Source: Alphaproteobacteria bacterium (GTDB taxonomy: Bacteria; Pseudomonadota; Alphaproteobacteria; SP197). Taken from it: a stretch of DNA of 64,000 nucleotides. Each line of letters opens with the position of its first letter. The first letter of the stretch is position 1. Below, piece by piece: positions 18,836 to 51,659 of this stretch. Location of the stretch: the NCBI GenBank assembly GCA_965228895.1, contig OZ245842.1:4160001-4224000 (forward strand), read 5' to 3'. The notes under the pieces were generated by a model. The model was not told the origin of the DNA, ran no database searches, and was given only the letters and a program-made list of their open reading frames with translations. The translations under genes and the position numbers were made by a program.

Positions 18836-18862
18836 AGCCCGCGTCAATCACGCAACCTAACC

Positions 18863-21136: not shown

Positions 21137-21186
21137 AATGTCGACAATTGTATTGGCTCAAGGCTAATATTAGATCATGACAATGT
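21137..21186. promoter_or_regulatory. Candidate MocR/EnuR operator in the divergent promoter
   Basis: AT-rich spacer with ACAAT/ATTGT half-sites (21144-21151 ACAATTGT palindrome, 21180-21184) and a CTAATATTAG palindrome. Confidence 0.35.
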
Positions 21187-22724: not shown

Positions 22725-23453
22725 ATGACGCTAGAGACCTTGGGCGAACGCGATATCCATATTTGGCTTGCCGAACCCGACAAGACCTTGGGCACGACCG
22801 GTTCCGTTGACGCCCATGTGGCCCTGCTCGACCCCGACGAGACACAGCGCTATCAAAATTTCAGATTCGACCGCGACCGCCACAGTTTCTTGGCTGCGCA
22901 CGTCTTGCTGCGTAGAACGTTGTCGCGTTACGCGCCGATCGGGCCGGCGGACTGGACGTTCACGAAGAATGCCTATGGGCGGCCGGAGATAGCCGGTCCT
23001 TCGCGCGCCCTTCCCCTTCGATTCAACCTGTCGCATACGGATGGTCTGGTCGCATGTGCGATCACAAAGGGGGCCGATGTCGGTGTCGATGTGGAGGCAT
23101 TGTCACGCCCGACGCCTGGCCTCGACATCGCCGAACGATTCTTCTCGCCGGAAGAGTACGACCTGCTTCGTCAGGCGCCAGCCGCCCAGCAGCACGAACT
23201 CTTCTTTGCCATTTGGACGCTCAAGGAGGCCTATATCAAGGCGCGTGGCATGGGTCTTTCGCTGCCCTTGGACCAATTCGCCTTCGATCTCGACCACTTG
23301 GCGTTACGCAGTGTCCATTTCCGCGACGAACTCAACGACGCCCCAGAAAATTGGCAGTTTGACGTTCGAAGCACCGGCCCCTGTCATACCTTGGCCTTTG
23401 CGGTGCGTCGCGATGGCACCGGCGATATGCGCCCGGAGATCCGAGGAGCCTGA
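22725..23453 (+). CDS. 4'-phosphopantetheinyl transferase (Sfp type)
   Basis: YGRP, FNLSHT, VGVDVE and WTLKEAYIKARGMGL motifs. Adjacent to the NRPS genes. Confidence 0.95.
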   Translation: MTLETLGERDIHIWLAEPDKTLGTTGSVDAHVALLDPDETQRYQNFRFDRDRHSFLAAHVLLRRTLSRYAPIGPADWTFTKNAYGRPEIAGPSRALPLRFNLSHTDGLVACAITKGADVGVDVEALSRPTPGLDIAERFFSPEEYDLLRQAPAAQQHELFFAIWTLKEAYIKARGMGLSLPLDQFAFDLDHLALRSVHFRDELNDAPENWQFDVRSTGPCHTLAFAVRRDGTGDMRPEIRGA

Positions 23454-23771
23454 TAGGGCTCACCGCCGAGGTGAATCACAGGACAGCTTGCGAAACGGCG
23501 TCAAAGCAATCGACCGTCCTCAACCATTAGTAGAACGGTCAGACTTGCGAATACGGCATGATGGATGCGAAGATCTGGCGCGCTTGGCATGGATTACTCC
23601 ACAGCACAGAGCGCATTAGCGCCTCTGAACCCATTTGCAATGGTCATGGCGCAGTAGTGACGGCAGTCACACAAGCACTATCCAAAGCACGTTGACGATG
23701 CATCCACTGGTGGACTAATACTTTGGGGTGATGAATCTTCAGTTAACGTAGCAATAGAGGGGTAGTTCTCC

Positions 23772-24098
23772 ATGGCCGGTATGTTTATGACCATCTCACG
23801 GTGCCATGTTAAGGCGGGCAACGAAAACGAAGCCCGGGCGCTTCTTGAAAAAGAGATGCTTCCCGGTGACGGCAAGAAACCTGGCGATATCGTCGACGGC
23901 TTGGTCGGATTTGGCTTGATGAAGGCCAAGGCCGATGAGTCCATGTATGGCGTCGTCACGGTTTGGCAAAGCGAAGCAGACTTCGACAAGATGGCCAGCA
24001 ACCCGGCAGCCAAGGATGGCGGCGGGATGGTCGCGAAGCTTCAGAAGCTCTGCGACGGCGACGTCAAGGGCGAAGGCTTCTACATCGAAAGCCTCTGA
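23772..24098 (+). CDS. Small dimeric alpha/beta-barrel (ABM-like) protein
   Basis: 108 aa with VKAG.E.EA and YGVVTVWQSEADF patterns typical of ABM/Dabb folds. GAGGGG RBS. Confidence 0.6.
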   Translation: MAGMFMTISRCHVKAGNENEARALLEKEMLPGDGKKPGDIVDGLVGFGLMKAKADESMYGVVTVWQSEADFDKMASNPAAKDGGGMVAKLQKLCDGDVKGEGFYIESL

Positions 24099-24169
24099 TC
24101 GCTCGTCAGAGATCTAAACGTCGTTCACTTGGCCGCCGCATTTCGGCGTGGCGGACATAGAGTGTCGGG

Positions 24170-24197
24170 ATCGGAGCCGCCACCAGGCGGCTCCGAT
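24170..24197 (+). terminator. Strong hairpin after the ABM-like gene
   Basis: ATCGGAGCCGCC-ACCA-GGCGGCTCCGAT: perfect 12-bp stem with 4-nt loop. U-tract is weak. Confidence 0.55.
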
Positions 24198-24517
24198 TAA
24201 CCCGGCAACTCAAAAAGGCGGGCGTGCTCTCGCCGTTTGCACCACTCAGGACCGTATGCCTCCTAGTCTAGACCGGCACTGTTGCTAACGTGTCGCGATA
24301 GGCGGACTTATCGTCTTGGCGTATAGGTGCCGATGTGTCTTGAGTGCGCCTTTCGACATCGGTTTTTGCATATCCGCGAACGCAATGCGCCACACTTCTA
24401 GACATCAGCATCCAGCAAATGGCTTTGGTCGGCTTGTGTTCGGCCGGACCCGACGGCTGGTGGTGATCGCCAATTCTTTGTCGCGCCGCTTGTCCGGGTG
24501 CACCTTGGTCGACCGTC

Positions 24518-27500
24518 ATGCCTGATCGGCAGCCTTCCGCGACGGGTGCGCCAGCAAAAGGTCCTATCGAGGATGTCTATCCTCTGACGGACATGCAGCA
24601 CGGCATTCTCGTCAGATGCGTCAGCTACCCCGACCAGCCCGTCTACATGGGCCAGTGGTGGGCTGAGGTTGACGGAGAGCTTGATGAGCAGACATTCGCC
24701 GATGCCTGGAATGTCGTTGTCCAGCGCCATTCGGCACTTCGGTCGGCGTTTCACTGGGAGCTGAAGGATCAGCCGTTCCAGGTTGTGCATCGCCAAGCAA
24801 CCCTCCCTGTCGAGCCGCTCGACTGGACCGCCAGCGTCGACTGGCGGCAACAACTTCAGGCGTTTCTAAAGGAAGACAGGGAAAAGCCGTTCGATCTGAA
24901 ACGCCCGCCGCTCATGCGGGTCAGGCTCGCGCGTCTGGCCAATGACCGGCACGTCATCATATGGACACGCCATCATCTGGTGGTCGATGGCTGGTCACTC
25001 GGCGCCATTCTTGACGAGGTGTTCACGGCCTACCGGGCGATAAAAGACCGTCAATCACCGCCGCTCGGCGCCGCGTTGCCATTCCGGTCATACATCGACT
25101 GGGATCGCGGACGTGACTCCGCGACTGCGCTGGCACACTGGAGACGTGTTCTGGACGGCTTCAGCCAGCCCACCGTGGCGGGCGGCCAGCTTGCCTCGGC
25201 AGCAGACGTTACAGAATTGGTTGAGACGGTCGATGAACAGACAACGGCGCAACTTCTGGACTACGCGCGTGATGCGCGCCTAACACCGAACACGCTTGTC
25301 CAAGGTGCGTGGGCGCTTGTCCTGTCGCGCATGACCGGACGCGATGATGTGCTGTTCGGCTCGGTGGAAACCCAACGCCCGGCCCATTTGCTTGACGATG
25401 AGGCGGCGACCTTGGTTGGCCCGCAGGTCGTCGTTCTGCCGGTTCGCGCCAAGATTGACGATACCCCGATTGGCGACTGGCTGAGCCAGCTCCAGGCGAA
25501 CATGGTGGCGGGACGCGAGGCCGGCGGGGTCAGCCTTGATGCGGTTCGCGACCTCATCGATCAACCCCGCGATGCCTTGCCGTTCGACAGCTTGGTCGGG
25601 TTTCAGAACTATCCGCTCGATGAGTCCAAGCCGCTGAAAGACGCCGGATTGACGGTGGTCGACAGCGCCGACGTCTCCCTGCCGGACATGCCGCTCAATC
25701 TGATGGTCGAGACCGGCGACACCATGACACTGCGCTTGATTGTCGACCGCCGCCGCCACACAGAAGCCCAGGCAAGCGGCGTCCTGGCGATGTTGGCCAC
25801 GGCATTGCGCGCCGTCGCCGAACGGTTCGCGAGCCCGGCGAGCGACATCGATGTTCTGCCTGAGGACGTGACCCGGCTTCTCCGGGACGAGTATGCCGGC
25901 AACGTCGAGCTGGAGGTGGCCGAGCCGATCGCGCCGGACCTGATTTTGCGCCACGCCCAGGTGACGCCAACGGCAATTGCCATGCGATATGGCCAACAGG
26001 AGATCGCCTACCGGCACTTCGCGACGGCGGCATGTGACATTGCCGAAAGGATCGGCTGGACCGATGTGCCGGCGAACAGGCGTATCGGCGTCATGCTGGA
26101 CCGCTCACCGGCCGCCATCGCTGGACTACTAGGCGTCATGCTCGCTGGTGGCGCTTACGTGCCGCTCGATCCCGAGGGTTCGAGCAGCCGCCGCGATCTG
26201 ATTCTCAGTGCTGCCGGCATCGACACGGTGGTGACGTCGTCGGACTATGCCGACCAATTCCCCCAATGCCGGGTCGTTGTCGTCGATGGATTGGCGGAAG
26301 AAACCACGCGCGACATGGCCCACAAGCTGCCGTCGGCAGACGACGAGGCGTACGTCATCTTCACATCCGGTTCGACCGGGCAGCCCAAAGGCGTCATCGT
26401 CGGCCAAGACAACCTTCGTTATCATATCGCGGCACGCGCGGCGGCCTATCCCGACCGGCCGATCGGCGCCTTTCTCCTGACCTTTCCGATCTTTTTCGAT
26501 GGCTCGGTCACCGTCATCTTCTCGACACTGGCGACGGGTGGGACGCTGGTCTTGCCCGAACCGGTCGAAGCGACGGATCCCGATCGCCTGGTGGCCCTCA
26601 TCAAGTCCGCCGGCGTCACCCACACCGACATGATACCGTCCATGTGGAGCCTTGTTGTGGCTGCGGCTGGCCCCGCCGACTTGGCATCGATGCGCCAGGC
26701 CCTGGTCGCGGCCGAACCGTGTCCAAAGGATCTGGTCGCCGCCCATGATGCAAAGCTGCCCGGGGTTCCGCTCTATAACGAGTATGGCCCGACGGAGACG
26801 ACCGTCTGGGCGACGGCGCACCGTTGCGAAACGACCGATCGCGAAGCGACGGTGCCGATTGGGCGGCCCATTCCGGGGACACGCGTCTACGTTCTGGATT
26901 CACGTGGCAGATTGTGTCCGCCGGGCAGCGTTGGAGAACTGACCGTGTCGGGCCCGGCCGTCGCGCGCGGCTATATTGGGGCCGACGAAAGTGCTGTCCA
27001 AAAGTTTACGCACAATGCCTTCGCCACCGATCCGATCTTTGCGCCGGCCTACCGGACCGGTGATCTCGCCGCCTTCGGCGTCGATGGCCAGTTGCGGTTC
27101 CATGGCCGGTCCGACCATCAGGTCAAGGTCAATGGCCACCGCATCGAACTGGGCGAGATCGAGTCCTGTTTGGCGGACCACCCCGACATCAAGGAGGCCG
27201 TGGTCGTTGTCCAGCAAGATGGTGATCGACCGGCCCATTTGGTCGCCCATATCGCCGGCCCGGATCTACCGGAACCCGAACTCGTCCGCCAGCACGCCGG
27301 CCGTCATCTGCCCGCTTACATGGTGCCCCATGTCGTCATGCGCCATGAGAGCCTGCCGCGCACGGTCGCCGGCAAGCTCGATCGATCACAGCTTCCTGCA
27401 CCGCCGGACGAGGCGTCGGCGGCACCGCCGCAGGGCGAGCGTGAATGCGCCCTTGCCGCGATTTGGCAGGATGTCCTCGGACGGCCTGAGATCAGTCGTC

Positions 27501-27754
27501 ATGACGATTTTTTCGCGCTCGGCGGCACCTCATTGATTGCCATGCAGGTTATCTCGCGCATCAGGCGCGATCTGCACGTGAACGCCGAGTTGCTCGACCT
27601 GTTCGAAGAGCCAGCGATCGCGTTGCTGGCCGAGCGCCTGGCAGCGCGTGAACCGGTTAAAGCCGGTTCCGGCGCCAAGCTGACACAGCGCCGTCGAACA
27701 CAAGTCGACCTGTCGGCGGTGGCAGGTCAGGGGAGCGAGCCCCGGGCACAATGA
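24518..27754 (+). CDS. NRPS, C-A-T (1078 aa)
   Basis: IEDVYPLTDMQHGIL (DCL-like start), HHLVVDG, YVIFTSGSTGQPKG, NEYGPTE, YRTGD, and T-domain FFALGGTSL. Confidence 0.95.
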   Translation: MPDRQPSATGAPAKGPIEDVYPLTDMQHGILVRCVSYPDQPVYMGQWWAEVDGELDEQTFADAWNVVVQRHSALRSAFHWELKDQPFQVVHRQATLPVEPLDWTASVDWRQQLQAFLKEDREKPFDLKRPPLMRVRLARLANDRHVIIWTRHHLVVDGWSLGAILDEVFTAYRAIKDRQSPPLGAALPFRSYIDWDRGRDSATALAHWRRVLDGFSQPTVAGGQLASAADVTELVETVDEQTTAQLLDYARDARLTPNTLVQGAWALVLSRMTGRDDVLFGSVETQRPAHLLDDEAATLVGPQVVVLPVRAKIDDTPIGDWLSQLQANMVAGREAGGVSLDAVRDLIDQPRDALPFDSLVGFQNYPLDESKPLKDAGLTVVDSADVSLPDMPLNLMVETGDTMTLRLIVDRRRHTEAQASGVLAMLATALRAVAERFASPASDIDVLPEDVTRLLRDEYAGNVELEVAEPIAPDLILRHAQVTPTAIAMRYGQQEIAYRHFATAACDIAERIGWTDVPANRRIGVMLDRSPAAIAGLLGVMLAGGAYVPLDPEGSSSRRDLILSAAGIDTVVTSSDYADQFPQCRVVVVDGLAEETTRDMAHKLPSADDEAYVIFTSGSTGQPKGVIVGQDNLRYHIAARAAAYPDRPIGAFLLTFPIFFDGSVTVIFSTLATGGTLVLPEPVEATDPDRLVALIKSAGVTHTDMIPSMWSLVVAAAGPADLASMRQALVAAEPCPKDLVAAHDAKLPGVPLYNEYGPTETTVWATAHRCETTDREATVPIGRPIPGTRVYVLDSRGRLCPPGSVGELTVSGPAVARGYIGADESAVQKFTHNAFATDPIFAPAYRTGDLAAFGVDGQLRFHGRSDHQVKVNGHRIELGEIESCLADHPDIKEAVVVVQQDGDRPAHLVAHIAGPDLPEPELVRQHAGRHLPAYMVPHVVMRHESLPRTVAGKLDRSQLPAPPDEASAAPPQGERECALAAIWQDVLGRPEISRHDDFFALGGTSLIAMQVISRIRRDLHVNAELLDLFEEPAIALLAERLAAREPVKAGSGAKLTQRRRTQVDLSAVAGQGSEPRAQ

Positions 27755-30700
27755 ACAGCGGCTACTTGGCCAGTGTTTCGTTTGGACAGCGCCAGATCAG
27801 GTTCCTTGAACTGCTGCGTCCCGGTCAGTCGAGCTTCGCCATGCCGCTCATCGTCGACGTCACGGGTCCGGCCGACCCGGTCGCGCTGTGCGCCGCGCTA
27901 CAATCGGTTGTCGATCGTCACGACGTCCTGCGCGCATCCTTTCCACTCGTCGACGGTTCACCGGTACAGGCGGTCCGCGATGTCATGCCGCTTGATGTTG
28001 CGTCGACGAACGTCGACGGGACCGAGCCGGAGACGTGGCGCAGTCACCTTTTAAAAGCAGCCGATGATCTGGCGGCCCTTCCCTTCGACCTTGCGGCAGG
28101 GCCGTTGATCCGCGCACGCCTGTTGCGCGAGTCCGAACGGCGCCACGGCATTGTTGTCGTCTTGCATCACATCCTCGCCGATGGCGCCTCGCTCGATATT
28201 CTGGCGCGCGATCTTGTCGCCGCCTACGACGCGGCGCATGGCGGGGCGGCCCCTGATCAAGACGCGCTGCCCCTGCAGTTCACTGATTTCGCCGACTGGG
28301 AGCAGGAGAGTTTCGGTCAGGCCGACACGCCTGAGCTTCAGGCAGCGGCAACCTATTGGCGGGCGCGGTTGCGTAACGCGCCTTCGGTGCTTGACCTGCC
28401 GTTCGACCGCAGGCGCCGCACGGACGGGGAAACCGCCAGCGCACATCACAGCCTGACGGTCGATGGCCCTATCGCCGAGCGGCTCAACGCCGTCGCACGG
28501 CAATCGGGCGCGACGCCGCTCATGGCCTTTCTTGCGGTATGGATAGCGGTACTGCGCCGTTGGAGCGGCCTTGACGATCTCGTCGTCACCATCCCGATAT
28601 CGAAGCGGACGCGGCCGGAACTGGCCGATCTTATCGGCCTCTTCGTCGACACCCTGCCCATCCGCACAGCGGTCGACGGCGACACGACATTCCAAGATCT
28701 CTTAGGCCAGGTGCGCCAGGCTCTCCTTGAAGGCATGGAGCATCGCGAGCTGCCGTTCGAGCGGATTGTTCAAGCGATCGGCATCGAGCGGCGCAGCGAC
28801 ATCATTCCGCTGATGCAGGTCTTGTTCGGTGCTCATCAGGATCAAGACGAGCTGCCGGAAACGGCCGGTGGCTGCCACTTTGACCTGCTTAGCGACAGCG
28901 TCGAACAGGCGGCGAAGACCGACCTCTCCATGGTCTACCGACCCGGCCCCGACTCGCTCGATCTGTGGTGCCGGTATGACGCCATGCTGTTCGACGCGTC
29001 GACGGTCGAGGCGCTGCTGCAGTGGTACGGCAAGGTGGCGATGGCCGTCGCCGACCAACCGGACACAATCATCGATACCATCCCTCTCGTCGACGAGGCA
29101 GGCGGCAAGGACCTGGTCGCGCGGTTCAACGCGACACACCGCGCCTATCCGCGCGAACGCTCGGCCATCGACCTGTTCTTCGAGATCGCGACGTCATCGC
29201 CATCGGCCATTGCCATCGAAGAGGACGGTAACAAGCAGAGCTATGACGAGGTCGCGTCACGCGTGCACAGGTTGGCTGCCGTCCTGGCCGCTGAGGGTGT
29301 CGGCAAGGGCGATACCGTCATTCTCGCCATGACGTTATCGGCCACGTGTATCGAGTTGATGCTCGCAGTCCTGACGCTTGGTGCCGTGTTCGCGCCAATC
29401 GACCCGAACTATCCGAAAACCCGCCGTGACGAGCTCGCCCAGAGTATCAAGGCACGCTTCGGCATCGCCCACGATGATGGGCTTGAGCTTACGGTGGAAA
29501 CCGTGTTGCTCGCCGGCGACCTGCAGTCGCGGTCGATGGCGGCGGAACCGCACCCCGGCACGCCGGTCGATGCCTCGGATACCGCCTACGTTATGTTCAC
29601 TTCGGGCTCGACAGGTGTGCCAAAGGGCGTCGCCGTGCCGCATCGCGCGATCGTCCGGTTGGTCAGCAACACCGATTTCTGCCGTTTCGGACCACAAACA
29701 AGATGTGTGGCCTATTCGAACCCGGCCTTCGATGCGTCGACGCTGGAGGTCTGGGCGCCGCTCTTGAACGGCGGCACCGTGGTACCGGTTGACCGCACGG
29801 TTATCATGGACGCCCGGTCGCTGCGTGAGTTCTTGTCGGCCAACAACATCAATCTGATGTGGATGACGGCGGGGCTATTTCAGCAGATCGTCACGGTCGA
29901 TGCCACGGTCTTTGCCGGCGACCGCACGCTCATTGCCGGCGGCGACGTCGTCAACCCGGCTTCGGCGCGCGCGGTGCTCGCCGCCGGCGAAGGCACGGGT
30001 TTCAGGTTGCTGAACGGATACGGCCCAACGGAAAACACGGTGTTCAGCACCGTCTACGACATCGGCGACCTTGAAGAGACGGCGACCACGATCCCGATCG
30101 GCAGACCGATCGCCAACAGCACGGCCTACGTGCTGGATCCGAACGGTCATCCGGCGCCGGTCGGCGTCGTCGGTGAGATCTACGTCGGCGGTGACGGTGT
30201 GGCGCTCGGCTATGTCGGCGACGCCGAACGCACGGCATCGAGCTTTCCGATCGATCCCTTTTCCGCACAACCGGGCGCGCGCATGTACCGCACGGGCGAT
30301 CTTGGCCGCTGGCGCAGCGACGGCGTCATCCAGTTCGTCGGTCGCGCCGACAACCAGGTGAAGGTGCGCGGCTTCCGTATCGAGCTGAACGAGATCTCCG
30401 CTGCCCTGGCGCGCCACCCCAACGTCGGCGCGGTTGCCGTCACCGCGCCACGGCAGGAATCCGGGACACGGCAACTGGTCGCCTACGTGGTTGGCAAAGA
30501 TGGCCGTTCACCGGATCAAGGTGCCTTGCGCAGCCATCTGCAGGCGCAGTTACCACCCCACATGCTGCCGCATGCCTATGTCGCGATGGATGAACTGCCG
30601 CTTACCATCAACGGCAAGGTCGATACCAAGGCGCTCCCGCCCGTCGAGGCGCAAAACTACGACCGCGCCGATATCACCCTTGCGCCACGCACCAGCGAAG

Positions 30701-34683: not shown

Positions 34684-34692
34684 CGGCCCGTT

Positions 34693-35559: not shown

Positions 35560-35766
35560 GTCGAACCTCGGGGCTGGTAGGTCGTGTGGTCGTCGCAATC
35601 AATTCGATATGACCACTGACTTGAGAGGCACGCCATTCTATCATCAACTTTGGTTGCACCTCTACGGAGCTTTTCAAAACCCACATGAACCAACGCATTT
35701 CGATTCCAAATCTGTGTGTTGCACAGTGAGACTGGATGCGTATTCCTGGAACGTGCTGGTCGCGCC

Positions 35767-41813: not shown

Positions 41814-44800
41814 CCGCCGATCCCGCAGCCAAGGACGTGCTGCGCGAACGTCTGGCGCGCCTGAAAGCAGACCAGATCGCCGAGCTGGTTCTGGACCTTC
41901 AGTCACGCATCGACGGGCTGCGCGCCGAGCTGACGGCCGGCCATGAACCGATCGCGATTGTCGGTCAGGCTTGCCGTTTGCCCCATGCCGGTGGTGTCGA
42001 GGACTTCAAGCGCTTGCTGTTCGCCGGCGAGAACGCCGTCGGCGCGCCGCCCACCGATCGTCCCGAGGCCGACGGCCTGCCGCCGGCAGGTTACATCGCC
42101 GATATCGATCGTTTCGATGCGGGCTTCTTTGGCTTCCGCGCCGGCGAAGCCGCCGCCATGGATCCGCAGCACCGTCTGCTGATGGAACTTGCGTGGCACG
42201 CTCTGGAGGACGCCGGCTATGCCGACCGCCATCGCCGGCCGTCCAACACCGGCATCTTTGTCGGTGTCAGCACCAGCGACTATGAAGAGCGGTTTCGCGG
42301 CGTCGCACACCGGGGCTTCACGCCCCAGGCGATAACCGGCAACGCGCGCAGCATCGCCGCCGGACGCCTGGCCCATTGGCTCGACACGACCGGACCGGCA
42401 TTGGCCTTGGACACCGCCTGCTCATCATCACTGGTCGCTGTCCACATCGCTTGCTTGTCGCTTCGGTCGGGTTCCTGCGACATGGCCGTCGCTGCCGGCG
42501 TCAATGCGTTGCTGGAAGGCGATCTGAGCGACGGTTTTGAAGCCGCCGGGATGCTGAGCACAGACCACGCCTGCAAGACATTTGATGCTGACGCCAACGG
42601 TTATGTCCGCGGCGAAGGCGGCGGGGTCATCGTGCTGAAACGCCTGTCCGATGCCGAACGTGACGGCGATGTCATCCGCGCTGTCGTAAGGGGCGGCGCG
42701 ATCAACCACGACGGCCGCGCAAGCGCGCTGACGGCACCCAACGGGTCCGCGCAAATTTCGGTCATTCGCGCAGCCCTGGAAAACGCCGGGTTGGCGCCAG
42801 CGGACGTGCAGGTCGTTGAGTGTCACGGGACCGGCACGCCCCTCGGCGATCCGATCGAGGTCCAAGCGCTCGGCGAGGCCTATGGCCCGACCCGAGAAAG
42901 CGACCTGATGCTGGGCGCCGTCAAAACTAACATTGGTCACCTTGAAGCCGCCGCAGGCATCGCCGGCCTGATCAAGATGGTGCTCGCTTTGGAGGCCGGC
43001 CAACTGCCGCCGACCCTCCACCAGACCAGCCTCAATCCCCGGATTGCATGGAACACGCTGCCTGTCCGCGTCATCGACAAGCCGACGGATTGGCCATCGT
43101 GCCCGACACGGCGGGGCGGCGTCAGCAGCTTCGGCTTCAGCGGCACCAACGCGCACATCATTCTGGAGGCCGCACCCGAGGTTGAGCCCAAGGCACCGAC
43201 CGAACAGGCGCTGACAGTCCTGCCGCTGAGCGCCCCCGATCAAGAGGGCGTCTCACGGCTCGCAGCCGCCCTAGCTCACGAGATCGACGTACGACCCGAC
43301 CTAGACCCGGCCGCCGTGACGGCTGCGTCGGCGTTCGGGCGCGAGACGTTCGCCGAGCGCGCCGCGGCGGCAGGCGCAACCCGCGACGATCTGATCGACG
43401 CGTTGAAAGCCATCGCCGACGGTGGAGGCGCCAGGGGCGCCGCCACGTCGGGACCCGTCAGAATTGCCTTCCTGTTTACCGGCCAGGGCAGCCAGTGGTC
43501 GGGCATGGGCCGGGACCTCTATGACGGCGACGCCGACTTCAAGGCGATCATCGACGCATGTGCCGGGGTGCTCGAACCGCACCTGCCCTACCCGCTTGCC
43601 GGCCTCATGTTCGACGACCGCCACGAGGACCTTCTGCTCGATACGGCGATCGCCCAGCCGACCTTGTTTGTTCTGGAGTATGCGCTGGCCAAGCGGCTCG
43701 AAGCCTGGGGCATCGTGCCCGACATTATGATCGGCCACAGTCTGGGCGAGTTGGTTGCCGCATGTCTGGCGGGCGTGATGCCGCTCGACGACGCGTTGAA
43801 GCTGACGGCCGAGCGCGGTCGCTTGATGGGTTCTCTGCCGCGCGATGGCGCCATGGCCGCCGTGTTCGCCCCGATCGCCGTCGTCGAACCGTTCTTGGCC
43901 GAGCATGCGGGCCACGTCGATATCGCCGCGATCAATGGCCCGGAAGACTGTGTGATATCCGGCGAGGCCAAGTCCGTCGACGCGATCTGCGATGCCTTGG
44001 AAGCTCAGGACATAGGCTGCCAGCGGCTGCGCGTCAGCCACGCATTCCATTCGGCTCTGATGGAACCGGTGCTCAAGACGTTTCAACAGGCCGTTGCCGG
44101 CGTGTCGTTGTCGCCACCGCGCATCCCGGTGGTCTCGAACGTCACGGCGACGATCGATGCGCCCCTTACCGATCCCGCCTATTGGGCGCGCCATGTTCGC
44201 GAACCCGTGCGCTTCGCCGACGGCATGGCCACTGTGATCGAACACGGCGCGACGGTTCTGGTGGAGGTCGGCGCGACAAGCGCGTTGATCGGCATGGCCC
44301 AACGGTCGCTCGCCGATGCCGGCAATCCGATCACGTTCATCCCGACCCTTCGCCGCAACAGGCCGGCGGCACAGGGCCTCGGCGCGGCGCTCGCCCAGCT
44401 GTTCGTCGCCGGTGCGCCGATCGAGTGGTCCGCGTTTGTCGCGGACACACCACGCGCCGTGCTGCCGGGTTATCCGTTCGCCGACGAACGCCATTGGACG
44501 CCACGGCCGTCACGGCAGGCCGGTGCGTTGCGGCAGCCGATCGCTGCCGGTTCATCCACACAGAGCAGCGAAGCGCCTTCGGCCGTCAGCACGCCCGCTT
44601 CGCCTCAAGAGATTCGCGAAACCGTGCGCGCCCTGCTTGCGCGCTCCATGCAGTTGGAGCCGGCCGCGTTGGATGCCGATATCGGGTTGTTCGAGCTTGG
44701 TGTCGACTCCCTCGCGTTGACCGAGGCTATCGCGGCGGTCGAACGGCGTTGGCGGATGACGCTCGCGCGCCAAGCCGTGTTCGCGGAATACAACAGCGCG

Positions 44801-47800
44801 CGCCGGCTGGTTGCGCATGTGGTCGACGCCATTTCGAACCAGGCCGGCAGCGCGGTGGGCGATGTCGCCCCTCAGCCCGTCGCCGACCAGTATGCCCCGC
44901 CGCCGCCCCGGCCATCGTCGGAAGCGCCGGCGGCAACGCAGCAAGCCGGCCTCAGTGAAAAGGCCCGGGCCTATCTGGACGGTTTCGCACGCGACTATGT
45001 CGAGCGAAGTGGCGCGTCGCGCCGGCAACGCGAGACCTACGGTAAGGTCCTTGCCGACAGCCGCGCCGTTGCCGGGTATCGCGCTGAAACCAAGGCAATG
45101 CTCTACCCCATCATCGGCGCCAAAGGATCCGGCAGTCACATCGTTGACCTGGACGGCAACGACTACGTTTCCTTGACGATGGGTTTCGGCGTCCAGCTAT
45201 TCGGCCATAACCCGGCGTTTGTGGTCGACGCCATGCAGCGTCACCTGGCCGAACAAGGTTTGTTTATGGGCCCGCAGGCATCGCTCGCCGGCGAGGTCGC
45301 CGCGCGGATTGCCCGGCTGACCGGTAACGAACGGGTTCTCTTCTGCAATACCGGCACCGAGGCCGTGATGACCGCGCTCAGGATCGCGCGGCACACGACC
45401 GGACGGTCCCTGGTCGCGATGTTCGCCGGCTCCTACCACGGGCATTTCGACGGCACGCTTGCCCGTTCCGGGCCTGACGGTCAAAGCGCGGCGCTGGCCG
45501 GCGGTACGCCCGACGGCATGGTCAGGGATGTGCTCGTTCTGGACTATGACGACCCCGATGGTTCCCTTGAGACGCTTCAGCAATTTGCCGGTCAATTGGC
45601 GGCGGTCATCGTCGAACCGGTTCAAAGCCGCCGGCCGAGCCTACAGCCACGCCAATTCCTGCAACAGCTCCGCGCCTTCACCGAAGAAGCCGGCGCGGCC
45701 CTCGTGTTCGACGATGTGTTGTTGGGTTTCCGCGTCGCCCAAGGCGGGTCACAGGCCTGGGCCGATGTGCGCGCCGATCTCGTCACCTACGGCAAGATCG
45801 TCGGCGGCGGCCTGCCAATCGGCGTCGTCGCCGGGCGGCACGCGTACTTGGACGCCATCGACGGCGGAACCTGGACGTTCGACGGCGATGACGTACCGCA
45901 GGAATCCCGCACCTTCTTCGCCGGTACGTTCAATAAGAACCCGATGACCATGGCGGCCTCGAACGCCGTTCTGACCCATCTGGAGGAAGCCGGGCCGCAG
46001 CTTCAGGAAACGCTGAACGCGCGCACGGCAGATTTCTGCGATCGTCTGAATGCCGTACTCGCGGAAGAACAGACGCCACTTCGCGTTGATCACTTTGCGT
46101 CGGTGTTCCGGTTCAGCGGCGCCAACGACCTCTTCTTCAACCACCTCATCGCCAACGGCGTTTACGTGTGGGAAGGACGCACGTGCTTCCTGTCGACGGC
46201 GCACACGGATGCGGATCTGGATCGTGTTGAAGACGCCGTGCGCAAAAGTGTCCGCGCCATGCTGCCCGCAGGCCTCATCGCGACGCGCACGTCATCCCGG
46301 GAACCCCGGACGGTTCTGACAACACCCGGGCAACAGGCGCTATGGGTCCTGGCAGCATTCAGCCCCGAGACATCATCGGCCTACAACCAATCGCTCGTGC
46401 TCGACCTCGGCGGCGATCTCGACCAGGCGGCGCTCACGCACGCGCTTCAAACCTTGGTCGAGCGGCATGATTCGTTGCGCTCCCGTTTTTCCGATGATGG
46501 CGAATACCAGACAATCCTTGACCCGGCCCCCGTCGACTTGGAACAGGTCGACCTAGCCGACACGGAAGACTCGACCGGCGACGCCTGGATCGAAACAGAG
46601 GCGTCGCAGGCGTTCGATCTGGAAGCCGGCCCGGTGCTGCGGGCCACCTTGCTGCGGCTGTCGCCCGATCGCCACAGGCTGGTTTTGATCCAACCCCATA
46701 TCGTGACCGACGGCTGGTCGATGCAGGTTTTGGCGGTCGAGTTGGGCGCACTCTATTCCGCTTTCCGTAGCGGGAAGAAACCCACGCTATCGTCGGCGCC
46801 GCCTTATCGTGTCTACGCCGACCGCGCGCGGGAGATGGCTGCGGCGCCGGAGGCCGCGGCCCATTGGCGCGGGCTCTACGCAACCGTGCCGCCAACCCTC
46901 GATCTGCCGACCGACCGGCCGCGACCCAAACTTCAAGCCTTTGACGGCGACTGCATCTACCACGGGCTATCCGCTGCTCTATCCGAGCGGCTGGAACAGC
47001 GTGCGCGCGCACTCGGTTGTTCGCTCTTCACCCTGTGCCTGGCCGGCTACGCACGGCTGCTCAGCCAATTGAGCGGACAAGGTGACCTGGCCATTGCGAT
47101 CTTCGCGGCAGGACAGCCGCTGGTCGGCGAACGGTCGCTGACCGGATACTGCGTCGCCACCTTGCCGGTCCGGCTCAACGGCGCGGACACATCCTCAAGC
47201 CGCGATCTTGTGACCGGGACACATCAGGCGATGTCGGACGCGTTGGCTTACCCCGGCTATCCCTTCTCGTCGCTGATCAAGGCACTTGGCATGAAGCGCG
47301 ACCCGTCGCGCCCGCCCTTGACCGGCGTTTCCTTCAATCTCGACCGGTTGGATGCCGAACCGCAATTCGACGGTCTGACGACAACGCTGGGGGCCAACGC
47401 CCATGGCAGCGTGCGGTGGGATCTCAACTGGAACATGCTGGCCAGTGCGGACGGCTTGCAGATCGAAGCCAACTTCAACAGCGGCCTGTTCGACCGGCAG
47501 CGTGTCGAAGACTGGGTTTCGACCTATGTTGCCATTCTCGACGACCTCTGCGACGAGACGGATAAGGCACCGCAGCCGGCAACGCCGGACACCCCATCCG
47601 ACGTGCAGACTCTCGCGCACCGGGTCGCCACGTGGGCAGCAACAACACCGGATGCCGTTGCGGTGCTGGATCGCGACGGTGCGACCGACTACGCGGCGCT
47701 TGACCGGTCGGCCGCCGGCCTTGCCGGGCGTCTGACGGCGGCCGGTATCGGTCGCGGTGACCGGGTCGCGTTCAAACTTGATCGAGGTGCCGGGCCGGTC

Positions 47801-50731
47801 GTCGCGATGCTTGCCGCCGCGCGCATCGGCGCGGCGTTCGTGCCCCTCGATCCCGATCATCCCGCCGATCACCATGCCTTTATCCTGCGCGATAGCGGCG
47901 CACGGCTGTTGATCACCGAACCGTCGGGCGACCACGCGGCGTTGGATCTACCGGTCATCGCCTGGCGATCGGATGACGATGAGCCGTCGAGCATGCCGGC
48001 GCCATGCGGTGTTGCGCCCGACGATCTCGCCTACGTGCTCTATACCTCCGGCTCGACCGGCAGGCCCAAGGGCGTCATGGTGCCGTGGCGGGCGGTCGAG
48101 ACCTATAGCGCCGCTCTGCTGGCGCGGCTCGGTGTCGACACGCCGACCTCGTTCGCCATCGTGACCTCGTTTGCCGCCGACCTCGGCTACACATCGGTGT
48201 TCGGCGCCCTGCGCTCGGGCGGCGCGCTGCACGCGATCGATGCCGAAGCCGCGCGTGATCCCAACCAGTTGATCGCGTGGTTCCAAGACCACCCGGTCGA
48301 CATGATGAAGATCGTGCCGACCCACATGGCCGCCCTGATGACGGCGCCCGACGCGCGTACCCTGCTACCGCGCAACGCCCTGATCTTCGGCGGCGACGTC
48401 TTGACCTATGACCTCGTCGACCGGTTCCGCGCGCTGGGCGGCGATTGCCGGATCTTCAACCACTATGGCCCGACGGAAACCACGGTCGGCGCCACCATGA
48501 TCGAGGTCACAGACGGTCTTCGGCAGCCCGATGACGTGGCGGTTCCGATAGGCCGGCCGCTTGACGGTTACACCATCGAGGTTATCGGAGAAGATGGTGG
48601 CCTGCTGGACGCCGGCATAACCGGCGAGCTGCGGATCGCGGGTCCGGCGGTCGCAGCCGGCTACGTGACGCCTCATGGACAAGAGCGCGCCAGGTTCAGC
48701 CGCGGCGTAGACGGCCTTGCCCGCTATGCCACGGGCGATCTCGGCCGCCGGCGTGACGACGGCATCATCGAGTTCGCCGGACGCAAGGACGATGTGGTGA
48801 AGATCCGCGGGCATCAGGTCGACCCCGCGGGGATCGCGACACTGATGCGCAGCCACCCGGCTGTCCGCGACGCCGCCGTCTTGATCGACCGGCAGGCGGG
48901 CCGCGCACCCCGTTTGGTGGCTGTTGTTGTTACCGACGACCCGGTGGACACGATTGCAGCCTGGCTGTCGGAGAAGGTGCCGGCCGCGCTGTGTCCCTCA
49001 CAGATGACAGCGCTTGACGCCATACCGCTGAATGCCAACGGCAAGGTGGATCGTACCGCCCTGCTCGCATCGCTCGAACGCCCCCATCACGATGCCGCGC
49101 ACGCCGCAGCGTCAGAAGGCGGCCGCGTCGAGATCATGTGTTCGATTTGGCGCGAGGTGCTGGAAGTCGAACTGGTTGGGCCAAATGACGACTTCTTTGC
49201 CCTGGGCGGCGACTCGATCGTGGCGATCCGCGTCGCCGGCAAGGCCCGATCGGCCGGTCTGACGATCAGCCCGTCTCAGATCTTCGAACACGCCACGCCA
49301 GCCACTTTGGCGGCCGTCGCGACATCCGTCGATGACGAGGCGCCGAAGAGCCGCGACCTGGTGGCCGGGATCACGCCGCTAACGCCCATCCAGCGCTGGT
49401 TCATGGCGATCGACATGGCAAAGCGGAACCAATGGGCGCTGACCGCGGTCTTCGACCTACCGGCGGCCACGACGCCCGACCGACTCACACAGGCGTTGTC
49501 GGTGCTGATCAAACGGCATGACGCCCTACGCACCGCGCTGCGGCACGATAACGGCGTTGCCGGTCAACAGGTCGTGGACGACGGGCACGCGCCCACGGTG
49601 ATTACGTGCGAGATGAGCGAAGAGAACACCGCCGACCGGACAAAAGCCGAAGATGAACTCGCAAACAGGCTGGTCGCAAGCCTGGACCTGGACCGGGGCC
49701 AGGTGATGGCCGCCGGCCTGATCACATCCCCGTCGGGTAACGTCAAACGCCTGGTTGTCGCCGCCCATCACGTCGCTTTCGACATGGTGTCCTGGGGTAT
49801 CGTCGCGGAAGATATCGAGATCGCCCTGACCAGAGGAGCCGACGCCATCCCACCAGTGGCAACGCCATGGTCGTGGTGGTGCAGCCAATTGGCCGGGTAC
49901 GCGGAGGCCGCGCGTCCGCAGCTGGACTATTGGCAGTCGGTGGAAAAAGAGGGTTCGACGGCTATCCCGTTCGATCACGTGGACGGTGCCAACGCCGAAG
50001 GCGACGCAAGGGAGATAGAACGGGAGATCAATGCTGAAGTCACGGAGACTCTGCTGACATCGTCCGCCGAGACCTACGGCATGCAGGCCCACGAAATCGT
50101 GCTGGCTGCACTTGGCCGCGCCCTGGTGGGTTGGTCAGAGGCGCCGACCATCGTGGAACTGGAAGGCCATGGACGCGAGCCGTTGGATCCCACGGTCGAT
50201 CTGTCACGCACCGTCGGCTGGTTCACGACACGTTACCCGCTTGCCCTGCCAATTGCGCCGGCGGGCGATCCGCGCGATTGGCTTGTCGCCGTCAAGGAAG
50301 CCGTTCGCGAGATACCGCAGCGCGGCATGGGCTATGGCCTGCTGCGATACCTCGACGGCGCCGATCTGACCGCCGGACCGACGGTCTCCTACAACTTCGT
50401 CGGCGAGATAACGCGGTATGGCGGTGATCTGGGCCTGGTTCGGCTGGGCGCAGGCCAGGAGCGCGATCCCGCGGCACAGCGCCCGCACCTGTTGGTCTTC
50501 ACCGCCTGGCTCGACAACGGCGCGCTTTGCCTGCGGTGCCAGCATGCCGGCAAGCACGCAACGGCCACCGTAAGCGCCCTGCTTGATAACATCGTCCTTG
50601 AGATCACGAACCTTGCCGAGCATTGCGCGACCGCATCGGGGCGCGTCTACACGCCTGGCGACTTTACCGATGTTGATTTCAGTCAGGATGAGTTGGATCA
50701 GCTCACCGCTGACATTCTGGGGTCAGACTGA
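41810..50731 (+). CDS. Hybrid PKS-NRPS: KS-AT-ACP-aminotransferase-C-A-T-E (2973 aa)
   Basis: KS DTACSSS/HGTGT/NIGH; AT GHSLG and HAFHS (malonyl type); ACP GVDSL; class-III aminotransferase GTEA...TYGKIVGGG; C PHIVTDG; A YTSGSTG; T GGDSI; E HHVAFD, EGHGRE, RTVGWFT. Confidence 0.95.
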   Translation: MTADPAAKDVLRERLARLKADQIAELVLDLQSRIDGLRAELTAGHEPIAIVGQACRLPHAGGVEDFKRLLFAGENAVGAPPTDRPEADGLPPAGYIADIDRFDAGFFGFRAGEAAAMDPQHRLLMELAWHALEDAGYADRHRRPSNTGIFVGVSTSDYEERFRGVAHRGFTPQAITGNARSIAAGRLAHWLDTTGPALALDTACSSSLVAVHIACLSLRSGSCDMAVAAGVNALLEGDLSDGFEAAGMLSTDHACKTFDADANGYVRGEGGGVIVLKRLSDAERDGDVIRAVVRGGAINHDGRASALTAPNGSAQISVIRAALENAGLAPADVQVVECHGTGTPLGDPIEVQALGEAYGPTRESDLMLGAVKTNIGHLEAAAGIAGLIKMVLALEAGQLPPTLHQTSLNPRIAWNTLPVRVIDKPTDWPSCPTRRGGVSSFGFSGTNAHIILEAAPEVEPKAPTEQALTVLPLSAPDQEGVSRLAAALAHEIDVRPDLDPAAVTAASAFGRETFAERAAAAGATRDDLIDALKAIADGGGARGAATSGPVRIAFLFTGQGSQWSGMGRDLYDGDADFKAIIDACAGVLEPHLPYPLAGLMFDDRHEDLLLDTAIAQPTLFVLEYALAKRLEAWGIVPDIMIGHSLGELVAACLAGVMPLDDALKLTAERGRLMGSLPRDGAMAAVFAPIAVVEPFLAEHAGHVDIAAINGPEDCVISGEAKSVDAICDALEAQDIGCQRLRVSHAFHSALMEPVLKTFQQAVAGVSLSPPRIPVVSNVTATIDAPLTDPAYWARHVREPVRFADGMATVIEHGATVLVEVGATSALIGMAQRSLADAGNPITFIPTLRRNRPAAQGLGAALAQLFVAGAPIEWSAFVADTPRAVLPGYPFADERHWTPRPSRQAGALRQPIAAGSSTQSSEAPSAVSTPASPQEIRETVRALLARSMQLEPAALDADIGLFELGVDSLALTEAIAAVERRWRMTLARQAVFAEYNSARRLVAHVVDAISNQAGSAVGDVAPQPVADQYAPPPPRPSSEAPAATQQAGLSEKARAYLDGFARDYVERSGASRRQRETYGKVLADSRAVAGYRAETKAMLYPIIGAKGSGSHIVDLDGNDYVSLTMGFGVQLFGHNPAFVVDAMQRHLAEQGLFMGPQASLAGEVAARIARLTGNERVLFCNTGTEAVMTALRIARHTTGRSLVAMFAGSYHGHFDGTLARSGPDGQSAALAGGTPDGMVRDVLVLDYDDPDGSLETLQQFAGQLAAVIVEPVQSRRPSLQPRQFLQQLRAFTEEAGAALVFDDVLLGFRVAQGGSQAWADVRADLVTYGKIVGGGLPIGVVAGRHAYLDAIDGGTWTFDGDDVPQESRTFFAGTFNKNPMTMAASNAVLTHLEEAGPQLQETLNARTADFCDRLNAVLAEEQTPLRVDHFASVFRFSGANDLFFNHLIANGVYVWEGRTCFLSTAHTDADLDRVEDAVRKSVRAMLPAGLIATRTSSREPRTVLTTPGQQALWVLAAFSPETSSAYNQSLVLDLGGDLDQAALTHALQTLVERHDSLRSRFSDDGEYQTILDPAPVDLEQVDLADTEDSTGDAWIETEASQAFDLEAGPVLRATLLRLSPDRHRLVLIQPHIVTDGWSMQVLAVELGALYSAFRSGKKPTLSSAPPYRVYADRAREMAAAPEAAAHWRGLYATVPPTLDLPTDRPRPKLQAFDGDCIYHGLSAALSERLEQRARALGCSLFTLCLAGYARLLSQLSGQGDLAIAIFAAGQPLVGERSLTGYCVATLPVRLNGADTSSSRDLVTGTHQAMSDALAYPGYPFSSLIKALGMKRDPSRPPLTGVSFNLDRLDAEPQFDGLTTTLGANAHGSVRWDLNWNMLASADGLQIEANFNSGLFDRQRVEDWVSTYVAILDDLCDETDKAPQPATPDTPSDVQTLAHRVATWAATTPDAVAVLDRDGATDYAALDRSAAGLAGRLTAAGIGRGDRVAFKLDRGAGPVVAMLAAARIGAAFVPLDPDHPADHHAFILRDSGARLLITEPSGDHAALDLPVIAWRSDDDEPSSMPAPCGVAPDDLAYVLYTSGSTGRPKGVMVPWRAVETYSAALLARLGVDTPTSFAIVTSFAADLGYTSVFGALRSGGALHAIDAEAARDPNQLIAWFQDHPVDMMKIVPTHMAALMTAPDARTLLPRNALIFGGDVLTYDLVDRFRALGGDCRIFNHYGPTETTVGATMIEVTDGLRQPDDVAVPIGRPLDGYTIEVIGEDGGLLDAGITGELRIAGPAVAAGYVTPHGQERARFSRGVDGLARYATGDLGRRRDDGIIEFAGRKDDVVKIRGHQVDPAGIATLMRSHPAVRDAAVLIDRQAGRAPRLVAVVVTDDPVDTIAAWLSEKVPAALCPSQMTALDAIPLNANGKVDRTALLASLERPHHDAAHAAASEGGRVEIMCSIWREVLEVELVGPNDDFFALGGDSIVAIRVAGKARSAGLTISPSQIFEHATPATLAAVATSVDDEAPKSRDLVAGITPLTPIQRWFMAIDMAKRNQWALTAVFDLPAATTPDRLTQALSVLIKRHDALRTALRHDNGVAGQQVVDDGHAPTVITCEMSEENTADRTKAEDELANRLVASLDLDRGQVMAAGLITSPSGNVKRLVVAAHHVAFDMVSWGIVAEDIEIALTRGADAIPPVATPWSWWCSQLAGYAEAARPQLDYWQSVEKEGSTAIPFDHVDGANAEGDAREIEREINAEVTETLLTSSAETYGMQAHEIVLAALGRALVGWSEAPTIVELEGHGREPLDPTVDLSRTVGWFTTRYPLALPIAPAGDPRDWLVAVKEAVREIPQRGMGYGLLRYLDGADLTAGPTVSYNFVGEITRYGGDLGLVRLGAGQERDPAAQRPHLLVFTAWLDNGALCLRCQHAGKHATATVSALLDNIVLEITNLAEHCATASGRVYTPGDFTDVDFSQDELDQLTADILGSD

Positions 50732-50753
50732 TCTTACCAGGCTTTTGGTGCGC

Positions 50754-51659
50754 TTAAACGGTTTGCCATCGCGGTACGCCGCTCTCACCGCCGACATAAT
50801 CGATGTCGCTTGGCACTGATGGATAGGCGGGCGGATTGCCAGTGTCGACGAACTTGTTGAGTGGGCCGACGGTCATGGGCGCCACGTTCTGAAAAAAGGC
50901 CAGGCTGGTACGCGTCTGCGTGGTTTCCATGACGCGATGGCGGACCGCAGGGATGTGGCCGTTGGAGAACAACTCCATCCAATCACCGGGGATCACCAAC
51001 AAACTTGCCGCCGGATCGGCCGGCACGGTGAACCATCGACCGTCACGGTGCTTGATCTGCAGTGACTCCGTGCTTTGCGTGAGCATGGTGAACACCACGG
51101 CGTCAGAATGCTCCTGAAGTCCGGCGTCTTGCCCATCGCCACGCTGCTGACCCGGGTAGTGTTTCAGGGCCAAATAACCGGGCTCATAGCGCAGAAAGCC
51201 GGGCTCCTCTCCGAGCACCGTCTCAAACCCACGCAGCAATGCGCAAGCAACCGTCTCAAGAAGCGCTGCCGTTTCCGTCACGTTCGCCGCAAATCCAGGC
51301 GACACCTCGTCATCGGGCCACAGGGTGCGCGCCGTCTGGACGCTGAACCCATACTCCTGCTTGGGATCACGGCTCTGCATCTCGGACTCGCTCATATGGC
51401 TTGTATAGACCGGATGTTCACGCATCAAAGACCAGCCGCCGGTGGTTTCGCCAACCCGTACCGAATGGTGATACCGACGGCGGACGTCGATGGGCAGGGC
51501 CGTGAAATCGCTCCAGCTCGACAGGGCAGCGTGAACACACTGCAAGCGGCTTCCGGTCAACATGAGATAACCGCTGTCCATTAAGGCCGACTCGATGCCG
51601 CGCGCGACTGACGCGCCATCCTCGCCCGAGATAAGGTCTTCAATCTCCATCTGGGTCAC
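50754..51659 (-). CDS. Isopenicillin N synthase-like 2OG-Fe(II) oxygenase
   Basis: HYP, HSD (HxD), LQI...W, GD.ME..SNG...A..HRV and RTS (RxS) motifs. Confidence 0.85.
   Translation of the reverse strand: MTQMEIEDLISGEDGASVARGIESALMDSGYLMLTGSRLQCVHAALSSWSDFTALPIDVRRRYHHSVRVGETTGGWSLMREHPVYTSHMSESEMQSRDPKQEYGFSVQTARTLWPDDEVSPGFAANVTETAALLETVACALLRGFETVLGEEPGFLRYEPGYLALKHYPGQQRGDGQDAGLQEHSDAVVFTMLTQSTESLQIKHRDGRWFTVPADPAASLLVIPGDWMELFSNGHIPAVRHRVMETTQTRTSLAFFQNVAPMTVGPLNKFVDTGNPPAYPSVPSDIDYVGGESGVPRWQTV

Follow-up and report, generated by a model that had tools for sequence, protein, structure and literature searches.

Organization of the cluster

A compact gene cluster with nonribosomal peptide synthetase (NRPS) and polyketide synthase (PKS) genes occupies positions 22725..51659 of a 64,000 nt stretch of alphaproteobacterial DNA (contig OZ245842.1, positions 4,160,001-4,224,000, assembly GCA_965228895.1), hereafter the window, within which all coordinates are numbered (strand given as + or -). 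It has nine core genes in about 28 kb, and its predicted product is a very short fatty-acid-tailed peptide. The full domain string is FAAL-ACP; KS-AT-ACP-aminotransferase-C-A(Asp)-T-E; C-A-T; C-A(Val)-T-E*-C-T-TE (FAAL stands for fatty acyl-AMP ligase, ACP for acyl carrier protein, KS for ketosynthase and AT for acyltransferase; C, condensation; A, adenylation; T, carrier; E, epimerase; E*, epimerase-derived; TE, thioesterase). Every gene and domain string listed in the first-pass annotation of this DNA is found where it had been placed, including a phosphopantetheinyl transferase (PPTase), a type II thioesterase (TEII), an exporter, two Fe(II)/2-oxoglutarate (Fe/2OG) oxygenases and an ABM-like protein. 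The KS, AT, aminotransferase, C1-C4, E1, TE and every carrier have intact catalytic motifs; E* is the sole exception. The GC content of the cluster genes (0.57-0.66) spans the genome value of 0.62.

The source genome is a single contig, 98.7% complete, in which this is the only NRPS; the next adenylating enzymes are less than 29% identical to A3. Neither a free-standing A-T nor a match to MbtH was found in the complete genome, and FkbH was also unmatched there, in a search that was silent in control genomes as well and is thus without a positive control.

Starter, Asp module and module 2

The FAAL-ACP (39651..41813, +) is recognized by PF00550 and by NCBIfam FAAL models, at scores below their cut-offs; several homologues, 3.6-3.7 kaa long, have it joined to the PKS in one protein. 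The PKS protein (KS-AT-ACP-aminotransferase-C1-A1(Asp)-T1-E1; 41810..50731, +) was parsed from domain hits, motifs and homologue codes. Its KS has the motif DTACSSS and its AT the motifs GHSLGE and HAFH, the latter of which we take to mark a malonyl type. The aminotransferase (GKIVGGG) has the mycosubtilin MycA aminotransferase as its closest solved relative (6kfu/6kfm; E 4e-135). A Pfam scan of the PKS protein gave no match to a ketoreductase (KR) or dehydratase (DH), in agreement with the first-pass annotation, and the PF00296 monooxygenase domain is present neither in the PKS nor in 42 family homologues, although it occurs in other matches of the same search. The FAAL and ACP, the KS-AT and the class III aminotransferase ahead of the first C are the components of a beta-amino-lipopeptide starter, and the same route leads to a 3-amino fatty acid in the mycosubtilin and puwainaphycin lines (PMC4219810). 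The earlier proposal of a 3-amino fatty acid starter is supported by this analogy.

In the Asp module, C1 (QPHIVTDG) retains its second His and A1 has the code DLTKIGHVG, with an Asp-type code, DLTK[IVL]GH[IV]G, in 42/42 homologues; code positions were located by motif anchoring on what we take to be the GrsA numbering. A published Asp code is DLTKVGHVGK (PMC12283262). The E1 motifs HHVAFDMVSW and EGHGRE are intact, the HH pair is kept in 42/42 homologues, and the downstream C groups with DCL-type domains, which together support D-Asp as the predicted first residue, as previously suggested. In one Ancylobacter-labelled PKS homologue (P0282) the C1 motif is QPDVVTDG and the AT motif is altered; it is possibly a decaying copy.

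Module 2 (24518..27754, +) comprises a DCL-type C, A2 and T2 as judged from Pfam domains, motifs and a C-domain tree. C2 has the motif HHLVVDG and A2 the code DGTDLAEVW, which follows the pattern DGT-x-x-[AG]E[VI]W in 40/40 homologues. Positions 278/299 vary, with D/L in this cluster, I/V in the majority of betaproteobacterial copies and C/K in those of the Ancylobacter type, and nine codes occur among the 40. The nearest documented code found is that for His (DSALIAEVWK; PMC12283262), with which A2 shares 6/10 letters. Tentatively, the second residue (X) is probably basic or His-like; because the code is variable and the match to His only 6/10, X is not fixed and probably differs among family members.

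The terminal NRPS

The last synthetase (C3-A3(Val)-T3-E*-C4-T4-TE; 27751..34683, +) was delineated using Pfam domains, motifs and 48 homologues. C3 has the motif HHILADG, and A3 has the code DALWIGGVF (listed Val code, DALWIGGTFK; PMC12283262); the Val assignment made earlier for module 3 holds in 48/48 homologues. E* (30973..32160, +) is epimerase-derived and catalytically dead, by motif loss and tree, and is folded in the structural model. Its motif reads HRAVADD, with the second His lost and the EGHGRE motif gone. The second, catalytic His is replaced in 48/48 homologues (E in 21, R in 20, P in 6 and D in 1), with the first His and the Asp kept in 48/48. The T3-E* model has a predicted local distance difference test score (pLDDT) of 84 and T-E didomains as its best structural matches, and in a tree of 20 rows, whose references were cluster and occidiofungin domains only, E* falls among the E domains and away from the C domains (99/99). 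No other domain of the protein is less conserved (mean identity 0.46), yet E* is never lost. The X domain of glycopeptide NRPSs has a conserved HRxxxDD motif. E* was rejected as a true X domain, since the tree and the T-E matches derive it from E and the Arg of that motif is present in only 20/48 homologues; the X domain is of LCL-type origin (PMC8949500).

E* is followed by an A-less terminal module (C4(DCL)-T4-TE; 32218..34650, +), defined by motif conservation in the 48 homologues. C4 (HHLLVDG) is of DCL type in the C-domain tree, has HHxxxDG in 47/48 homologues and shows a mean pairwise identity of 0.61 versus 0.62 for A3. T4 (LGLTSL) has its carrier Ser in 48/48, and the TE (GYSFGG, IIDTP, GDHV) has an intact triad with its Ser in 48/48. 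Because these residues are so consistently kept, the A-less module is taken to work, and its conservation places the C-T-TE under strong selection. As the genome encodes no further NRPS A domain and matched neither MbtH nor, in the search lacking a positive control, FkbH, no enzyme outside the cluster is predicted to be able to load T4.

The first-pass annotation had read acyl-Asp-X-Val straight from the three A domains. This overlooked the conserved A-less C-T-TE and is not supported as stated; two beta-amino-lipopeptide systems of proteobacteria were found to end in E-C-T-TE, and both deviate from a plain read-out, in that megapolipeptin lacks Val and occidiofungin apparently gains a residue.

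Oxygenase genes

The core gene at 34693..35598 (-) encodes a PhyH-family Fe/2OG hydroxylase (PF05721) in which HxD...H and Arg are invariant across copies; a halogenase role was rejected, as HxD is retained. The closest solved relative is MysH (E 5e-28 with a single sequence, 1e-42 with a profile), which is proposed to alpha-hydroxylate an N-linked glycine with release of glyoxylate (PMC10666671). The gene adjoins the cluster in 11/16 loci or genomes; of the other five, three loci are too short (L030, L032 and L036), one genome has a contig break there (G727), and none was seen in the part covered of the L041/L042 variant. Among 33 family genomes the PhyH profile exceeds 440 bits only in the three that bear the cluster and reaches at most 197 in the others, a comparison that is partly circular because those three are in the profile. 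Of the two oxygenases, PhyH is the one that travels with the cluster.

The second oxygenase (IPNS/DOXC-like; 50754..51659, -), which had been counted with PhyH as a cluster gene, is probably an incidental flanking gene outside the cluster. It is present in 10/33 family genomes, and in six of these the orthologues are 62-67% identical and occur without the PKS-aminotransferase gene. It is 7.5 kb distant in one genome of the genus (G002) and does not follow the PKS in G727.

Predicted fate of the Val residue

We favour, with a probability of about 0.4, a model in which Val is oxidatively cleaved to give a 3-(acylamino or amino)acyl-D-Asp-X-NH2. A fatty acid would be loaded by FAAL and malonate added by KS-AT, and the 3-oxo group would be converted to an amine by the aminotransferase, chemistry that is established for MycA. 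Asp would then be incorporated and epimerised, as codes and motifs indicate, and module 2 would add the variable X, perhaps basic or His-like. L-Val would be added next, with E* unable to epimerise it and perhaps acting as a spacer or as a PhyH docking site. By analogy with megapolipeptin and MysH, PhyH would hydroxylate the Val C-alpha, and the carbinolamide would collapse to a C-terminal amide and alpha-ketoisovalerate. The keto-acyl piece would be handled by C4-T4-TE, either moved to the beta-amine or hydrolysed, and the product would be secreted by the ABC exporter. Equivalently, the line could close a 13-membered lactam on the beta-amine and then open it oxidatively at Val, which would give the same capped amide; these two steps would yield the megapolipeptin structure exactly.

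The principal precedent is the megapolipeptin (mgp) line of Paraburkholderia megapolitana, whose MgpD has, by its published description, an identical terminal string, C-A(Val)-T-E-C-T-TE (PMC11411415). The nuclear magnetic resonance (NMR) structure of megapolipeptin has no Val residue, a terminal primary amide and an alpha-ketoisovaleryl group on the 3-amine, which its authors explain by a proposed oxidative cleavage of Val, with a hydroxylase acting in trans on its C-alpha (PMC11411415). The two systems also share a KS-AT-T-transaminase-C-A-T starter leading to a 3-amino fatty acid, a stand-alone hydroxylase, a type II TE and a PPTase (PMC11411415). By domain string, the terminal module here is of the megapolipeptin type, with C-A(Val)-T-E-C(DCL)-T-TE in a single protein and a hydroxylase in trans. 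The invariance of the Val code (48/48), while residue 2 varies, also favours a sacrificial Val, as do the retention of PhyH beside the cluster, its likeness to MysH and the lack of any other enzyme in the genome predicted to load T4. A DCL-type C4 after a dead E presents no paradox under this model because an achiral keto-acyl donor would fit, and LgrA retains a dead E behind an achiral Gly (PMC11824870). A related use of a sacrificial last amino acid, with C-alpha hydroxylation and a terminal amide, is made by the MtaG/MelG amidation module of myxothiazol and melithiazol, which would resemble this cluster if Val is indeed cleaved; there the residue is Gly and the enzyme a flavin monooxygenase in cis inside the A domain, whereas here they would be Val and a trans Fe/2OG enzyme (PMC11411415).

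Several observations weigh against a sacrificial Val. No Paraburkholderia-labelled protein is present among the 120 best matches to the terminal NRPS, and MgpD is probably not a close orthologue of it. The megapolipeptin mechanism is its authors' proposal, MgpG is described as cupin-family rather than PhyH, and the keto-acid capping is placed on an extra A and a starter C (PMC11411415) that are missing from this cluster. The likeness to MysH is at the family level, as PhyH paralogues of non-cluster genomes score 105-197 bits and MysH 149 with the same profile. The L041/L042 variant (36% identity) has a dead E* but no PhyH between the PPTase gene and the first 1200 PKS residues. C4 and T4 also look like a normal extending module, and OcfD of the occidiofungin line shows that such a module can apparently add a residue.

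This last point leads to a second, rather unlikely model in which the A-less module adds a fourth amino acid. T4 would be loaded with Val by A3 in cis or through a TEII shuttle from T1/T2, the TE would close a 16-membered lactam on the beta-amine or hydrolyse the chain, and PhyH would beta-hydroxylate a residue, most likely Asp. Intact C4 and T4, with C4 as conserved as A3, are in keeping with this, and there are precedents both for re-use of an A domain in cis (mannopeptimycin) and for a C-T-TE loaded in trans (SyrE; PMC8949500). The plasmid locus L116 encodes an OcfD ending in A(Ser)-T-E-C-T-TE, and occidiofungin appears to have one Asn beyond the output of the upstream modules. However, the E ahead of the DCL domain is live in OcfD, and identity to OcfD is low (35% for C, 28% for T-TE); the DCL-type C4 here would have to accept an L-Val donor; there is no free-standing A-T in the genome, and megapolipeptin, with the same exact string, is made without an extra residue.

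An intact tripeptide, with C4-T4 only passing the chain on, is unlikely. The product would be 3-aminoacyl-D-Asp-X-L-Val, either linear or closed as a 13-membered lactam, and PhyH would hydroxylate the acyl C2 (as in the 3-amino-2-hydroxy acids of the microginin/bestatin type), the Asp C-beta or X. Rhodopeptin and azumamide are 13-membered cyclic tetrapeptides. The three A domains have intact motifs and the TE triad is intact, and the lactam could also be a real intermediate of the sacrificial-Val route. The 2-hydroxy group of puwainaphycin needs an oxygenase beside the aminotransferase (PMC4219810), and none is present in cis in this PKS. Against this stand the catalytic C4 and the Ser-bearing T4, kept in 47-48/48 homologues down to 46% identity, which the model leaves unexplained, as it does the megapolipeptin parallel.

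An amphiphilic metallophore using beta-hydroxy-Asp and His is very improbable: an Asp-T-E module with a stand-alone Fe/2OG hydroxylase does resemble beta-hydroxy-Asp siderophore lines, and A2 shares 6/10 letters with the His code, but siderophore beta-hydroxylases are mostly of the TauD/AspH type, there are too few chelating groups, the scans run recognized no TonB-dependent receptor in the window or related loci, and no box resembling what we take to be the Fur, Irr or Zur consensus lies upstream of the ABM gene in 11 loci.

Should Val be sacrificial, the final residue would have to be left out when products of such clusters are predicted, and the alpha-ketoamide could plausibly serve as a protease-inhibitor group. 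A more specific form of the sacrificial-Val model, which we regard as decidedly doubtful, envisages a horizontally spread family of minimal lipo-dipeptide alpha-ketoamides, N-ketoisovaleryl-3-aminoacyl-D-Asp-X-amides, formed via the 13-membered lactam or a T3-held chain beside a PhyH-docking dead E, with PhyH cutting the Val N-C-alpha bond. If true, C-A(Val)-T-E*-C-T-TE and a trans hydroxylase would together form an 'amidate and cap' cassette of general occurrence, the domains that dock oxygenases would include the dead E as a third kind besides X and interface domains, and a new accessory factor, product-binding or catalytic, would be represented by the dedicated ABM-fold protein. For the role of an A-less C-T-TE that follows a dead epimerase, a question that megapolipeptin also poses, this cluster is the smallest setting found.

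Relationships to other lipopeptide systems

Outside its terminal module the cluster differs from the megapolipeptin family, which is defined by polyunsaturated fatty acid (PUFA) synthase genes and a Thr-Thr-Ser-KS core. Megapolipeptin has a PUFA synthase where this cluster has FAAL-ACP, a Thr-Thr-ketide-extended Ser core rather than D-Asp-X, a cupin rather than PhyH, and its extra A and starter C (PMC11411415).

Occidiofungin (ocf) of Burkholderia is similar in having a beta-amino fatty acid starter, a terminal A-T-E-C-T-TE, a second thioesterase and a hydroxylase, and its glycosyltransferase (GT) has a parallel in the GT-like genes of two relatives of this cluster. It differs in being a cyclic octapeptide, with a live E and Ser/Asn codes, and is about 30% identical to this cluster. 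The six-A line, active terminal E and high identity to ocfD-J that define its family are not found here (35% identity for C, 28% for T-TE and no match for E*). An unannotated occidiofungin cluster lies on a Burkholderia arboris replicon (L116:13023-22517); in it a 3164-aa open reading frame (ORF) matches ocfD (9495 bp; PMC9494966) and reads A(Asn)-T-C-A(Ser)-T-E-C-T-TE. Occidiofungin runs Asn7-Ser8-Asn1/beta-OH-Asn1 (PMC10897925). The domain order suggests that Asn1 is added by the terminal A-less C-T of OcfD, although two papers assign it to OcfJ.

The iturin/mycosubtilin and puwainaphycin/microginin lines share the FAAL, ACP, KS and aminotransferase route to a beta-amino acid; they differ in having 7-9 residue rings, an in-line monooxygenase in PuwE and no A-less terminal module, microginin itself being linear. 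The iturin family has seven amino-acid modules and a heptapeptide ring, versus three A domains here and no other NRPS in the genome, and the luciferase-like monooxygenase that follows the aminotransferase in puwainaphycin/microginin lines is missing, with no PF00296 match. The cystomanamides of Cystobacter fuscus are likewise short linear 3-amino-fatty-acyl peptides that start with Asx and have beta-hydroxylation and sugar variants, but they have five modules and an FkbH-loaded glycerate module (PMC9581180). Glycerate loading of the terminal module was rejected here, as FkbH is unmatched in the genome by the search without positive control.

Distribution of the family

The terminal NRPS family comprises 48 full-length proteins of 46-100% identity, after which the best 120 matches drop to partial or 27-41% matches. 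Among the source labels are Xanthobacter agilis, Rhodopseudomonas palustris, several Ancylobacter, Paralcaligenes, Candidimonas, Pusillimonas and Parapusillimonas, and the PKS search, with its 42 family members, adds Rhodoplanes roseus and Segnochrobactrum; the labels of the family matches are all generic. This orphan family occurs in cultured and tractable strains that are non-pathogenic, among them Rhodopseudomonas palustris, Xanthobacter agilis, Ancylobacter and Pusillimonas. The two other genomes of the genus each have an orthologue of the PKS-aminotransferase gene (81-82%), and 0/30 other family genomes have one. The complete cluster is rare and was found in 0/400 sampled class genomes and in 1/397 genomes of four further family/order searches (0/11, 0/11, 0/237 and 1/138). 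Metagenome loci contribute family members in 10/80 cases at 52-60%, with two more (L041/L042) representing a 36% variant. The plasmid collection yielded no family member, its best C-T-TE matches being occidiofungin (L116) and an unrelated Streptomyces NRPS (L117). The family is scattered over Alpha- and Betaproteobacteria and its flanks change from locus to locus, a pattern suggestive of horizontal transfer.

Six metagenome loci have the gene order TEII (reversed), phyH, ABM, C-A-T, C-A-T-E*-C-T-TE, with the PPTase gene next in five. The other arm, TEII-ABC-FAAL-PKS, is seen in G727, where the contig breaks at the expected phyH position. In G061, the host of locus L022, no PKS-aminotransferase orthologue was found; the L022 locus stops at the ABC gene, at the contig end. 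The divergent L041/L042 variant, with proteins P0053, P0055 and P0056 (36-41%), has a dead E* (HRLVADE) and the order PPTase-ABM-CAT-TE-ABC-FAAL-PKS. Additional tailoring genes (a second PhyH, methyltransferase-like and GT9-like) are present in G001 (L015:8573-12796) and at L022:1588-5840, and G002 has a gene without a Pfam match that is glycosyltransferase-like by eye (L011:17092-17943). Since residue 2 and the tailoring genes vary naturally, a series of congeners is predicted.

No characterised cluster with the full string was identified, as the first-pass annotation had expected, and no description of the cluster or of a product from these hosts was found by architecture, host or chemistry, in a literature search for which most subscription journals lie outside coverage; the host names do not occur in PMC13745535, and PMC13036774, PMC11586506 and PMC11837247 proved not to be relevant. 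The starter chemistry and a precedent for each ending are already known; what appears to be new is the orphan family, its unusually short predicted core, the long-dead epimerase, the apparently working A-less end and two dedicated accessory proteins.

Two other loci have related starter genes. L016:11096-19949 (G060) encodes FAAL, ACP, KS-AT-ACP-aminotransferase-GNAT (PF13444 acyltransferase) and PPTase with no NRPS; its predicted product is a lipid, an N-acylated 3-amino fatty acid. L017-L019 (G041:C7:72000-110000) is a large PKS/NRPS cluster that includes an aminotransferase-bearing hybrid gene.

Accessory genes and upstream elements

A 108 aa protein with an ABM fold (dimeric ferredoxin-like; 23772..24098, +) matches PF03992 marginally, and its model (pLDDT 71.5) has Foldseek template modelling (TM) scores of 0.7-0.78 to ABM-family folds. 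Its gene is directly upstream of the C-A-T gene in 12/12 loci that reach that far, with 58-92% identity across loci. Among 1.84 billion representatives, relatives number eight at E<=0.001 and four at E<=1e-10. The protein is dedicated to this cluster family. A heme oxygenase role was rejected, as the His at what we take to be the heme-ligand position of MhuD is missing; from the fold, product-binding, isomerase or cofactor-free oxygenase roles are possible.

A likely sigma70-type promoter of the ABM-NRPS operon (23692..23721, +) is predicted from conservation of TTGAC, which lies 78-166 nt upstream of the ABM start in 11/12 loci, although a strict-consensus promoter scan did not call it. The ABM gene is followed by a strong RNA hairpin (24165..24205, +; z -5.7 versus dinucleotide shuffles) that may act as a terminator or stabiliser and has z values of -1.2 to -6.2 across 12 loci with a mononucleotide control. 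The TTGAC before the gene and the hairpin after it suggest that the ABM protein is made in excess of the NRPS. A weak CRP/FNR-family-like palindrome, GTGA-N6-TCAC (23657..23670, +), has its half-sites kept in three congeners (the window, L011 and L020) with differing spacers, 21 or 1 nt before TTGAC. There are two matches in the window versus 1.1 expected, and the palindrome is therefore not significant alone. Control by cyclic nucleotides or by Crp/Fnr is hinted at when the palindrome is considered with the cyclic nucleotide (cNMP) domain of the exporter and with a Crp-family gene that adjoins the G001 copy.

The remaining core genes encode a Sfp/HetI-type PPTase (22725..23453, +; PF01648, PF22624), which adjoins the cluster in most related loci, a type II thioesterase (35716..36555, +; PF00975), also present in related loci, and an ABC exporter with a C-terminal cNMP-binding domain (36910..39690, +; PF00664, PF00005, PF00027) that is conserved in related loci. 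The exporter has an N-terminus of about 200 aa, with no Pfam match for residues 1-230.

Flanking genes

Upstream of the cluster (8404-22571) are a narKGHJI operon, ectoine catabolism doeA/doeB-like genes and a MocR regulator, a block that is missing at the same place in G002. The first-pass annotation had thought the nitrate-respiring context unexpected; the nar neighbourhood is not conserved and is incidental. A link to nitrate respiration was rejected, since nar adjoins the cluster in G000 and G001 only; G002 and the 10 metagenome loci of the family lack it at this place. A separate carbohydrate-type set lies at 54109-59433 and consists of unassigned ORFs, a GT2, a split transketolase and a TIGR04324 2OG-Fe(II) oxygenase.

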